A stretch of 2,469 nt of DNA, taken from Escherichia coli (GTDB lineage Bacteria > Pseudomonadota > Gammaproteobacteria > Enterobacterales > Enterobacteriaceae). The translations under genes were made by a program, and so were the position numbers. Shown here one piece after another: positions 1 through 2,469 of the stretch (position 1 is the first letter of the stretch; every line of letters starts with the position of its first letter). The stretch lies in the NCBI RefSeq assembly GCF_003334255.1, contig NZ_QOWU01000133.1; one strand, 5' to 3'. The notes beneath the pieces were generated by a model. It did no database searches. It saw only the letters and a list, made by a program, of their open reading frames with translations, and was not told the DNA's origin.

Positions 1-1094
1 CAGGTCTCGCCCAGCGTGGTGTTCACAAAGGTTTTCAGGCCGTTGGGATCTTTCAGTGCATCCAGCCAGTCATAGACAATCTGTACCCAGGTGGTGAACG
101 GACTGTACGCCGTCCAGATATGGAATGTGATGGAGCGCGGCGGCGGAATTTCATTACCCGCAGCGCTGAAAAACGTCAGGCCGTCACGGGTCCACATGCC
201 CGTGTTTTCACAGATCCACCGCCCGTTGCTCTGGTCAAGATCAGACTGATGGATCACGCAGCCATGATGTTCACAGAGGTAGAAAACACTTTCTGGACTG
301 TCCTTCTCCCATTTAAGGCCAAAAGGCGTGGACTCATCGCCAAATTTCAGATACTGCGCCTCCCCACAGTGTGGGCAGGGCACATAAAAACGCATGAAAT
401 GCGCCGACTCGTTGGCCGCTTTTTCGATCTGGCAGGAGCCTTTTATTTTAGGCGTCGAGCCGCGAATGGATTTTGGCCATACCGAGCCCTCAATACGCTT
501 ATCCCCCAGCAGGGTTGGCGAGCCCTCTTTTTCGACATCCGGCTCGAACGAGGAAAGTTCGTCATAGCAGACCACGTCCACGGATTTTTCACGGTAGTTT
601 TTGGCGGCAGCACCACCCAGGCACCAGAACCCCACACGGGACGTGAATCTTTTTAATGTCAGTGTGTTATCCCGGTGCTTACGCCCCAGCCAGGGGGAAA
701 GAATTTTCAGACAGGGAACATCCCGTAATGTTGACTCCACATGAGACTTCATAAAATCTTCAGCGGCAGAATCCGTAGGCTGAAACAGAAGACTGTTACG
801 GTTTTTATGCTCAATAAAGTAACCAATAACGCCCATCAGCATTTTGGTGTAACCGACTCGAGCTGATTTTATAAGATTAATTGTGCGGATCCGGTCATTA
901 CCCATGCAGTTCATTATTGCCACCTGAAAGGGCAACGTCTTCCACCGCCCAGCAAGATAAGAGGACTCCGGGGGCAAATAATAATTTTGATCGGCCCATT
1001 CAACGGTGGTTACAGGCAGTGGGCGTAAAAGCCCACGAAGTGCCACTCCACAAACAACAGCAAAGTTATTTAGCTGCTTCTCTGAGGTATTCAT
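1..1094 (-). CDS. A: Terminase large subunit (lambda gpA family, TerL), N-terminal 364 codons. The 3' end lies beyond the left edge of the window.
   Basis: The supplied track omits this ORF because it is open at the window edge. I translated the minus strand from ATG 1094..1092 and checked every in-phase plus-strand triplet for tta, cta and tca down to position 1; none occurs. The protein begins [86 protein letters not shown]. It continues through [99 protein letters not shown] and [12 protein letters not shown]. It is colinear, without indels, with lambda gpA as I recall it. The packaging-ATPase landmarks fall at the same residue numbers: KSARVGYTK with K76 at 867..869, and YDE with E179 at 558..560. 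A GGAG Shine-Dalgarno sequence (1102..1105) sits 7 nt upstream of the ATG. The start overlaps the end of Nu1, as in lambda. Confidence 0.96.
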
Positions 1095-1614
1095 CCAGCA
1101 TCTCCGGTAACTTCTCTGCCGTTGATGCGCATCGGTTTGCCGCCTTTGCTATATCGGTTTTCAGGAAATCAAGCATAGCGGGCGTCAGTGCCGGAAACTG
1201 TCTCTGCATGGACAATGGAATGGAGTCAAGAATGGCAGAGATCTCCTGTGCCAGTCTTCCCAGAGCAAAAAGGCAAAACCCTGTATCAATGACCTGCCCA
1301 CTGTCGCGGGCATTTTTCAGTTCCTGTGCATCTGCCTGTGCCTTCGTCAGTCGGTAACGTTCGTAATCAATGGTGCCGGGCTGAAGGTCTGATTCGCTGG
1401 CAGCCCTCAAATCCTCGACCTCTTTACGGAGTTTTTCATTTTCAATATCAGCTTCGCGCTGAGCATACCATTCGATCGCCTTCGCAGAATCAAAGATGAC
1501 CTCAACACCTTTTCCTCCACCAGATATCTGAGGGAGCCCCTGAGTTTGCCAGCGATCAATAGTGCGTATATCGACATTAAAGATTTCAGCAAGCTTCTTT
1601 TTATTAACATTCAT
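1066..1614 (-). CDS. nu1: Terminase small subunit (lambda Nu1 family, TerS), complete, 182 aa
   Basis: This is the track [108 protein letters not shown]... It is colinear with lambda Nu1 ([105 protein letters not shown]...). Shared parts include the N-terminal winged helix-turn-helix that binds cosB and the GGGKG segment. An AAGGA Shine-Dalgarno sequence (1623..1627) sits 8 nt upstream of ATG 1614..1612. The start lies 188 nt from the cohesive-end nucleotide, compared with about 190 nt in lambda. Confidence 0.97.
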
Positions 1615-1631
1615 TCAGCAATTCCTTATCA

Positions 1632-1649
1632 AAAATCAGTTACGACATG
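1632..1649 (-). repeat. R1-like Nu1 binding repeat (minus-strand read CATGTCGTAACTGATTTT)
   Basis: It shares the CATGTCG 5' half with the other two repeats. It sits just upstream of the nu1 ribosome-binding site, where lambda R1 lies. The 3' half is divergent, so this is the weakest of the three calls. Confidence 0.4.
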
Positions 1650-1682
1650 AAATGCCAAAAAAGACAGATTTTTCAGCGTTCT

Positions 1683-1700
1683 GATGTCGTTTCTTTCTTG
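1683..1700 (+). repeat. R2-like Nu1 binding repeat, inverted relative to R3 and R1 (plus-strand read GATGTCGTTTCTTTCTTG)
   Basis: It closely resembles lambda R2 and R1 (TGTCGTTTCCTTTCT) with one C missing. Its orientation is opposite to the R3-like repeat, as in lambda. Confidence 0.6.
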
Positions 1701-1716
1701 ATGATTATTTCTTTAA

Positions 1717-1729
1717 AAACAATAAGTTA
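1717..1729 (+). promoter_or_regulatory. IHF-like site (I1 position of cosB)
   Basis: The plus-strand sequence AAACAATAAGTTA matches the IHF consensus WATCAANNNNTTR at 12 of 13 positions. It has an A/T-rich flank (1701..1716). It lies between the R3-like and R2-like repeats, exactly where lambda I1 lies. Confidence 0.55.
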
Positions 1730-1732
1730 ACA

Positions 1733-1750
1733 ACAAGAAGAACTGACATG
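1733..1750 (-). repeat. R3-like Nu1 binding repeat (minus-strand read CATGTCAGTTCTTCTTGT)
   Basis: It aligns by position with lambda R3 (GGCGTTTCCGTTCTTCTTCG). It shares the ATGTC(G/A) core with the other two repeats. Confidence 0.55.
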
Positions 1751-1790
1751 CTTTTTCCCGAAAAATTTTCATAAATAGCGAAAACCCGCG

Positions 1791-1802
1791 AGGTCGCCGC
1801 CC
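1791..1802 (-). other. cosN, the 12-nt cohesive-end sequence (terminase nicking site), present here uncut and joined
   Basis: Plus-strand AGGTCGCCGCCC is the reverse complement of GGGCGGCGACCT, the cohesive end shared by lambda and related lambdoid phages. On the minus strand it is flanked by ...CCGTTACG (lambda right end ...GGTTACG) and CGCGGGTTTTCGC... (lambda left end). Confidence 0.92.
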
Positions 1803-1825
1803 CGTAACGGCCCGGATCGCCGGAA

Positions 1826-1832
1826 AGGACCC
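1826..1832 (-). other. cosQ-like element (packaging termination signal)
   Basis: The minus-strand sequence GGGTCCT is identical to lambda cosQ. It lies 23 nt from the right cohesive-end boundary, the same spacing as in lambda (GGGTCCT TTCCGGTGATCCGACAGGTTACG there, GGGTCCT TTCCGGCGATCCGGGCCGTTACG here). Confidence 0.75.
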
Positions 1833-1840
1833 GAGAAAAT

Positions 1841-1853
1841 GATAATGATTATC
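1841..1853. repeat. 13-bp inverted repeat GATAAT-N-ATTATC next to cosQ
   Basis: Two 6-bp arms are perfectly complementary around a single central base. The same motif (GATAATCATTATC) sits at the equivalent place near the lambda right end, as I recall it. I know of no assigned function. Confidence 0.5.
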
Positions 1854-2111
1854 AGTTGCAACAAAATCCAGTTTCTTCCACCATCGCACCGGACGAGCGA
1901 CCATGAGGGGACAACGCCACGCTCCGTTAACGCGGTAAACCCCGGTGTGTATCGTTTTTGATTATCCCCGCACACTCGCGCAGAGGAGTCTCCCGGTAGG
2001 GCTGCGGTCTCTGTTCATGTGGGAATACGGCGACGATACTGCGCAAAGACATGCTTCAGAAATACATAAGTAAACTAAAATATTGTATCTCTGTGGCTAA
2101 TTACGTAAATT

Positions 2112-2135
2112 GGTGGCTTGGCCCCTTTAGCCACC
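2112..2135 (-). other. Inverted repeat, a possible RNA stem-loop about 35 nt downstream of the Rz stop
   Basis: GGTGGCT (2112..2118) and AGCCACC (2129..2135) form a perfect 7-bp stem with a 10-nt loop. No U-run follows on the minus-strand transcript (AAUUUACG), so it is not a canonical intrinsic terminator. Confidence 0.3.
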
Positions 2136-2169
2136 GGCAAATCTTCAGCGGATTATCCTTGGCCGGTTT

Positions 2170-2469
2170 TTATCTGAGGCATTGCTCACGAATGTATAGC
2201 TGTGCCCCTTCCAGCTGCTTCTGCATTGTCATCAACCGTTCTCTGAGGATGAAATAATCCCGTTCAGCGGCGTCTGCCAGTCTGGGGCCGGTTGCATTAT
2301 CCACGCCGGAGGTGGTGGGGGCTTCACGCACGGAGCCTGGACAGGTGGCGTTGATCCGCAGGCGCTTACGACCAGCGGCAACGTCAGCGCGAAGAGTTTC
2401 ATTTTCAGCTCTCGCATCGGCTAATTCCCTCGAGTATTTTGCATCGAGCGCAGCAACATCGCGCTGGCG
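2170..2469 (-). CDS. Rz: i-spanin Rz (inner-membrane spanin subunit), C-terminal 99 codons. The 5' end lies beyond the right edge of the window.
   Basis: Hand translation of the minus strand from 2469 gives RQRDVAALDAKYSRELADARAENETLRADVAAGRKRLRINATCPGSVREAPTTSGVDNATGPRLADAAERDYFILRERLMTMQKQLEGAQLYIREQCLR, with stop TAA at 2172..2170. It is colinear with the C-terminal two-thirds of lambda Rz (RQRDVAALDAKYTKELADAKAENDALRDDVAAGRRRLHIKAVCQSVREATTASGVDNAASPRLADTAERDYFTLRERLITMQKQLEGTQKYINEQCR). Both periplasmic cysteines are conserved. Confidence 0.94.
   Translation of the reverse strand, partial: RQRDVAALDAKYSRELADARAENETLRADVAAGRKRLRINATCPGSVREAPTTSGVDNATGPRLADAAERDYFILRERLMTMQKQLEGAQLYIREQCLR
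2232..2417 (-). CDS. Rz1: o-spanin Rz1 (outer-membrane lipoprotein spanin subunit), complete, 61 aa, nested out of frame inside Rz
   Basis: This is the track ORF MRELKMKLFALTLPLVVSACGSTPPVQAPCVKPPPPPAWIMQPAPDWQTPLNGIISSSENG. Lambda Rz1 is MLKLKMMLCVMMLPLVVVGCTSKQSVSQCVKPPPPPAWIMQPPPDWQTPLNGIISPSERG. The signal peptide ends in the lipobox VSAC, with Cys20 at the same position as in lambda. The mature domain is proline-rich, and the second Cys is conserved. A GAGGGA Shine-Dalgarno sequence (2427..2432) sits 9 nt upstream of ATG 2417..2415. Confidence 0.92.
   Translation of the reverse strand: MRELKMKLFALTLPLVVSACGSTPPVQAPCVKPPPPPAWIMQPAPDWQTPLNGIISSSENG

Follow-up and report, generated by a model that had tools for sequence, protein, structure and literature searches.

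The interval between Rz and the cohesive-end site in a lambdoid locus of Escherichia coli: a short non-coding stretch, probably the seam of two phage modules

Independent transcription units termed morons are found in lambdoid phages inserted between genes that are adjacent in their relatives (Juhala et al. 2000 and Hendrix et al. 2000, as cited in PMC3252337; review PMC3594210), and their presence in these mosaic genomes is well known. The interval between the lysis gene Rz and the cohesive-end site (cos) is one such place of insertion. In phage lambda the last base of Rz is 46427 and that of the genome 48502, and between these points lie bor (46459-46752, on the opposite strand), lambdap78 and lambdap79. 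In the DLP12 prophage of Escherichia coli K-12 the corresponding gene order is rzpD-borD-ybcV-ybcW-ylcI-nohD. The cos site includes cosQ, which is highly conserved and required to terminate packaging (PMC4669245). Here we describe the Rz-cos interval in a stretch of 2,469 nucleotides from E. coli (assembly GCF_003334255.1, contig NZ_QOWU01000133.1), which is referred to in its entirety as the window and in which all genes lie on the minus strand. An earlier note on this DNA had placed the Rz stop at 2170 and the nicking site cosN at 1802, with 367 bp and no gene between them, had contrasted this with an interval of about 2 kb carrying bor on the opposite strand in lambda, and had read the arrangement as the unloaded backbone state of a slot that usually carries accessory cargo.

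The coordinates proved exact. The gap from the Rz stop to cosN spans 1803-2169, or 367 bp, and its precise counterpart is lambda 46428-48502 (2075 bp), which also bears out the description of lambda. There is no credible gene in it. The NCBI annotation of an identical prophage in E. coli JE86-ST05 (NZ_AP022815.1; 100% identity to window 1615-2469) leaves the space from Rz to the small terminase gene without a feature, the records of phages PhiR5_1 and PhiR12_1 have nothing annotated between Rz and cosN (the sole extra open reading frame (ORF) of PhiR12_1 lies on the cosB side of cosN), and Pfam matches none of the five ORFs of 39-68 codons that overlap the interval. As neither an annotated nor a conserved ORF was found in the Rz-cos slot, it holds no protein-coding moron. 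We consider it likely that the 367 bp are the non-coding seam of a lysis module of the Stx-phage type and a packaging module of the lambda/21 type, with no accessory cargo at this point. From the Rz side to the cos side, it consists of the following parts:

2046..2169, no strand assigned: slot B, filled by a 124-bp AT-rich non-coding segment, with a homology break at 2045/2046
1868..2045, no strand assigned: conserved non-coding island of 178 bp with sharp edges on both sides, common to lambda (46868-46981), 21, ev243, DLP12 and the Stx1 and Stx2 phages
1855..1867, no strand assigned: slot A junction of 13 bp, empty here, with homology breaks at 1854/1868
1803..1854, minus strand: left arm of cos, homologous to the lambda genome end (48452-48502)
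1832..1826, minus strand: cosQ, GGGTCCT, the packaging-termination signal, an exact 7-mer at bases 24-30 from the nick
1802..1791, minus strand: cosN, the 12-base cohesive-end sequence GGGCGGCGACCT, an exact match to lambda bases 1-12

The cos side of the interval could be anchored to the lambda genome at single-base resolution. Positions 1791-1802 read AGGTCGCCGCCC, the reverse complement of the lambda cohesive end GGGCGGCGACCT, and therefore window position 1802 corresponds to lambda base 1 and position 1803 to lambda 48502. The left arm of cos is 90% identical to lambda 48452-48492 and 90-93% identical to ev243 and other prophages, and the spacing of cosQ from the nick equals that of the annotated cosQ of phage 21 and that of lambda. 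The gene order Rz/Rz1, cosQ, cosN, cosB, nu1, A is likewise that of lambda, with cosN and cosQ identical and identically spaced. The cohesive-end sequence, cosQ at its conserved spacing, and the genes for Nu1-type and gpA-type terminase subunits past cosB together point to a cos site of the lambda type. We also noted O157 prophages (with an O157:H7 example at locus 3501-3545) whose small terminase is of the DUF1441 type and which lack the lambda cosN; in them the homology to the window still extends beyond the island to about 1826 and takes in the AT-rich stretch beside cosQ, but includes no exact cosQ.

Alignments of the interval, pairwise and multiple, to lambda, 21, ev243, DLP12, a Stx1a phage, an O157 prophage and one further E. 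coli prophage showed that the island is kept in every relative compared, and that the sequences depart from each other in two places, one on either side of it. The measured homology breaks at 1854/1868 and 2045/2046 agree with the breakpoints put forward in the earlier note (1853/1866 and 2030/2170), whose expectation that the locus would serve as a reference for spotting insertions in relatives was thereby confirmed: it resolved two separate slots flanking a conserved island. On the cos side (slot A), the inserts measure 348 bp in ev243 (YlcI/YnfO), 771 bp in another prophage, 1162 bp in phage 21 and 1470 bp in lambda (p78/p79). The window has no YlcI/YnfO (DUF3950) gene between cosQ and the island, where relatives carry one and where only the 13 bp of slot A are present, and the distance from cosN to the island is 65 bp. 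Of 57 loci from IMG/VR, 6 have 64-65 bp between cosN and the island, 2 have 119 bp and 49 have 399-2073 bp. On the Rz side (slot B), bor occupies the slot in lambda, 21, ev243 and DLP12, while the slot is empty (9-12 bp) in 29 of 104 IMG/VR loci. In the window, a bor/Iss lipoprotein gene in slot B was detected neither by blastn (2046-2169) nor by Pfam. Lambda thus resembles the window in its island core (46868-46981, 76% identity) and in its last 50 bp (90%), and differs from it in having bor with its own promoter in slot B and about 1470 bp in slot A, as against 124 and 13 bp here. DLP12 similarly shares the order of Rz, island core (76.7%), a cos remnant (84%) and a Nu1 homologue, and differs in carrying borD in slot B and ybcV, ybcW and ylcI in slot A. 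Relative to the morons described in lambdoid phages, the window has no independent unit in the interval and represents the uninserted neighbour state for slot A only.

The contention that other lambdoid phages load this interval was upheld by the distance from the stop of Rz (or the spanin gene) to the genome end, which is 2075 bp in lambda, 1895 bp in phage 21, about 2560 bp in phi80, 2382 bp in N15, 2270 bp in HK97 (which has a different cos) and 1079 bp in ev243. To obtain a broader distribution, 120 island-bearing loci were fetched from IMG/VR, and the interval was measured in those 46 where an Rz match and a lambda-type cosN were present as well, with the Rz stops placed by the longest-open-frame method. 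In this sample, which was picked by an exact 29-base island pattern and was not de-replicated, the Rz-cosN distance has a median of 1391 bp and extremes of 252 and 2691 bp, and only 5 of the 46 contigs have 507 bp or less. That the slot usually carries cargo is therefore true of phages with a lambda-type cos. This lysis module is of the large Stx/O157-type family, in whose members Rz is often a short distance from the small terminase gene and the cargo is found instead between R and Rz or upstream of S. For instance, the O157 prophages and VT2-Sakai have a short distance from Rz to the small terminase gene and an antirepressor gene between R and Rz. The combination of a short Rz-terminase distance and R-Rz cargo in these relatives indicates that the lineage keeps its cargo elsewhere.

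The shortest intervals, of 252-253 bp, were found in Stx1a-converting phages (e.g. LC645428) and three IMG/VR contigs (L048, L051 and L128), in which the end of the island lies 10 bp from the Rz stop. These share with the window a cosN and cosQ of the lambda type, the type of Rz, the absence of any gene between Rz and cos, and the island (94% identity over 1813-2045 in the Stx1a-converting phages), and differ from it in lacking the 124-bp filler; it is they that represent the minimal state. Of 5426 complete E. coli genomes, up to 194 have their junction at a coverage of at least 80%, and 16-21 have the 367-bp arrangement. Hence the reading as an unloaded backbone failed in part: slot A is empty, but slot B has a filler of 124 bp where an empty slot measures 9-12 bp, and the 367-bp interval is a near-minimal state and not the reference state. 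It is also an ordinary arrangement, being present in these 16-21 genomes and in the deposited phages PhiR5_1 and the PhiR12 group (PV340545 and PV340549-54), which have the same 367-bp interval, unannotated, at 97.3-99.7% identity. Given that the records of these phages are entered as complete genomes and name E. coli C or MG1655 as the host, the arrangement appears to be compatible with phage growth. The deposited sequences of PhiR5_1 and the PhiR12 phages do not begin at cos.

The island is very widespread, and nearly all lambdoid phages of E. coli share it. Its core (1925-2045) is present in 4142 of the 5426 complete E. coli genomes (76%), at 11,016 places, with a median of 2 and a maximum of 11 per genome, and in 398 phage records, including phages of Shigella and Salmonella and short-tailed Stx2 phages with a different terminase. 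It always adjoins lysis genes, whatever packaging module comes next. We noted that 691 of the 11,016 places are on plasmid records, which may be phage-plasmids or prophage fragments carried on plasmids. No annotated feature lies under the core in 10 sampled genome matches, and the K-12 annotation has none at the DLP12 island (NC_000913 579009-579123); a literature search found no paper describing the island. A scan of GTDB species-representative genomes for the island pattern gave 34 hits and taught nothing about its taxonomic spread, since about 29 of the hits bear non-Escherichia labels (Cohnella, Pedobacter, Kitasatospora, Nanosynbacter, Pseudomonas and others). Many of these contigs have a length of about 3.5 kb or about 48.4 kb, which would suggest lambda control or spike-in DNA left in the assemblies. 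Four to five of the hits (four labelled Escherichia and one chromosome-sized Ottowia contig) may be real.

Two simple roles for the island in the expression of slot-B genes were considered and ruled out. It is not the bor promoter: the PhoP box of DLP12, a perfect direct repeat (TGTTTAGGGTTTGTTTA) 52 bp upstream of borD at locus position about 2946-2962, lies inside slot B, and the island is present also where bor is absent. The position of this box would fit the reported regulation of borD by PhoP. Nor is it a shared promoter of slot-B cargo, since slot B holds genes of either orientation, with bor on the plus strand and the antirepressor-like genes on the minus strand.

These observations fit a simple account of how the interval would work, which we infer from lambda biology. 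Late transcription would pass in turn through the 124-bp filler, the 178-bp island, the junction of about 13 bp and the 52-bp left arm of cos with cosQ. Q-modified RNA polymerase from pR' would read through the whole interval into nu1 and A, and terminase would use cosQ and cosN to end the packaging of each chromosome; besides these two requirements nothing in the interval would be needed. The lack of terminator-like sites on either strand of 1600-2300 is consistent with such read-through, and the promoter-like sites in this region number two against 1.1 +/- 0.9 expected, which is chance level. Relatives would differ by insertions at two fixed points, namely the Rz-side slot, which receives bor and antirepressor-like genes, and the cos-side slot, which receives YlcI/YnfO, DUF1398 or lambda p78/p79. 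The sharp and constant edges of the island suggest that the modules may be exchanged by recombination within it or at its ends.

The interval does not lack function, since cosQ, a part of cos, and the 178-bp widely conserved non-coding island lie within it. Several points weigh against a plain seam. The strong conservation of the island would imply some function that a mere junction leaves unaccounted for. The empty slots could stem from the loss of cargo, and not from never having had it. For the filler segment from 2046 to about 2097, relatives are confined to this phage group, and comparative tests have no power over it because all its copies are 99-100% identical. Lastly, the IMG/VR sample was not de-replicated, and its selection by the exact 29-base island pattern leaves island-lacking phages unrepresented.

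The first of these points leads to the alternative that survives best, which is that the interval encodes a functional RNA, in the form of a hairpin in the island core acting either as a processing or stability element that uncouples the lysis mRNA from the head mRNA, or as an insulator against unmodified polymerase. The predicted structure comprises the following elements:

1949..2039, minus strand: inverted repeat, imperfect and about 90 nt in length, whose late-mRNA strand is predicted to fold into a long hairpin (RNAalifold consensus of 62 distinct copies)
2033-2039/1949-1955, minus strand: outer arms of the hairpin
2021-2027/1963-1969 and 2017-2019/1971-1973, minus strand: inner arms of the hairpin

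Besides the wide distribution of the core over genomes and phage records and its constant position next to lysis genes, both given above, the alignment itself speaks for such a structure. Across the 62 copies, 99.4% of the cells of the consensus pair, as against 34-64% in slid controls, and four pairs show changes on both sides, a number reached by none of 500 shuffles; the island copies are closely related, so these shuffle counts overstate the significance, and the hairpin was scored on the same alignment from which it was predicted. The variation also shows a strand preference, with 11 pair positions varying only via G-U wobble in the late-mRNA sense (which would be A-C mismatches on the other strand) and 1-2 positions the opposite way, and with RNAalifold energies of -26 kcal/mol in the late-mRNA sense vs -9 kcal/mol for the other strand. 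Set against this, the stability of single sequences is modest (z-scores of -1.7 to -3.1 for the core, and in lambda the other strand folds too), the whole island shows no exceptional RNA stability (z-scores of +1.0 and +1.3), and Rfam covariance models gave no match at E<=1 over the whole window on both strands. On balance we regard a functional RNA as possible but rather doubtful. Somewhat more tentative still is a composite proposal, by which the island core would be both a structured, conserved part of the late transcript, perhaps a processing or stability site or an insulator at the boundary of lysis and morphogenesis, and a fixed recombination point for cargo swaps.

Another alternative takes up the possibility of cargo loss, and holds that an ancestor had bor or other cargo in slot B, of which the 124-bp filler is the remaining leader and terminator. 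The slot is indeed of an unusual intermediate size, being neither empty (9-12 bp) nor gene-bearing, and on the plus strand, which is the orientation of bor, a stem (2133-2138/2162-2167) followed by TTTTTA at the Rz stop resembles the terminator of a moron. This stem is weak, the scan for terminators is empty as stated above, and the folding stability of the filler, which has a further stem of 7 bp (2112-2118/2129-2135), is unexceptional (z-scores of -0.5 on the plus and -1.6 on the minus strand). The filler is also unlike bor, the PhoP-box promoter region of bor and other slot-B cargo, as blastn searches with 2046-2169 recovered no match to lambda bor or to other slot-B cargo except in a single locus (L138). 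Furthermore, its two ends have different distributions. Six phage records (PhiR5_1 and the PhiR12 group) and 16 of the 5426 genomes are the only ones with the full 124 bp, and the part from 2046 to about 2097 is restricted to this phage group. The 3' 53-72 bp (2098/2117 to 2169), on the other hand, directly follow Rz in 484 genomes, which marks them as a flank travelling with one group of Rz alleles; the two of these genomes that were examined have no gene between the island and Rz, and carry their cargo on the cos side. We therefore hold a secondary deletion to be unlikely.

That the interval encodes a small protein, from the ORFs 1975..1769 (minus strand) or 2051..2257 (plus strand), both of 68 codons, or from ORFs of 40-42 codons in the island, is very improbable, because the features that might favor it, i.e. 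the annotation of ORFs over the island in several phage records and two weak PHROG matches of ORF 1975..1769 (phrog_6954, E=9.5e-5, and phrog_35601, E=0.0036, the only ones in the interval), are outweighed by those of the frames themselves. ORF 1975..1769 crosses cosQ and cosN into cosB, and has 13 residues in common with the annotated ORFs of VT2-Sakai and ST2-8624 before the frames part. ORF 2051..2257 is antisense to Rz and is broken in the relatives that have its 3' part. No frame is open in all of 79 unique island copies, the lengths of the island (162-184 bases) vary in non-triplet steps, and the variability by codon phase is flat (0.095/0.067/0.100), with no 3-base periodicity; to this are added the lack of Pfam matches and of any NCBI gene call reported above. 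The family phrog_6954 itself, which is labelled "Rz-like spanin" and has 81 positions, may derive from ORFs called over conserved non-coding DNA, and not from spanins.

Read as the seam of a lysis and a packaging module, the 367 bp amount to one more example of lambdoid mosaicism, in an arrangement that was already public. The value of the map lies in the distribution of Rz-cos cargo over two slots around a fixed 178-bp island, and in the recognition of 252-253 bp as the truly empty state, which would help annotators to tell accessory genes (among them bor, YlcI/YnfO, DUF1398 and the antirepressor-like genes) from the backbone, and to avoid calling spurious ORFs across the island or cos. The island, which is unannotated, extremely widespread and hairpin-like, is the only part that could yield new biology.

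The seam is flanked in the window by the following features:

2170..2469, minus strand: Rz (i-spanin), C-terminal 99 codons and stop TAA at 2172-2170 (PF03245, E=7.7e-41); the gene runs past the end of the window
2417..2232, minus strand: Rz1 (o-spanin lipoprotein), inside Rz in another frame (PF06085, E=1e-21)
1615..1790, minus strand: cosB region, between cosN and nu1, in position and length as in lambda
1614..1066, minus strand: nu1, terminase small subunit (PF07471, E=1.1e-81)
1094..<1, minus strand: gpA, terminase large subunit, N-terminal 364 codons (PF05876, E=3.8e-55, and PF20454); the gene leaves the window

The start codon of nu1 is 189 bases from the nick, as compared to 191 in lambda. 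Phage PhiR5_1 matches the window over its full length at 99.1% identity. The PhiR12 phages differ from the window in having a different cosB and 5' half of nu1, so that window 1291-1755 has no counterpart in them, and a nu1 of 510 nt vs 549 nt here. In these phages, the Rz-cos interval is 98-99.7% identical to the window, and gpA and the 3' part of nu1 are 84% identical. On alignment, the difference looks like a swap of a packaging-specificity cassette, consisting of cosB and the DNA-binding end of Nu1, with one breakpoint just to the right of cosN.

On the lysis side, the identical prophage of JE86-ST05 annotates Rz, equivalent to window 2170-2628, as "lysis protein", and its late region is of the Stx-phage type, with a SASA esterase, DUF1378, DUF826, a class II holin and a lysozyme. 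Between the lysozyme gene (R) and Rz this prophage has two small hypothetical ORFs (locus 7026-7354). PhiR5_1, which differs from the window's arrangement in having more cargo at this point, has four ORFs there, one of them of 231 codons (locus 5737-6777). Thus accessory DNA interrupts the lysis cassette, even with no cargo in the Rz-cos slot.

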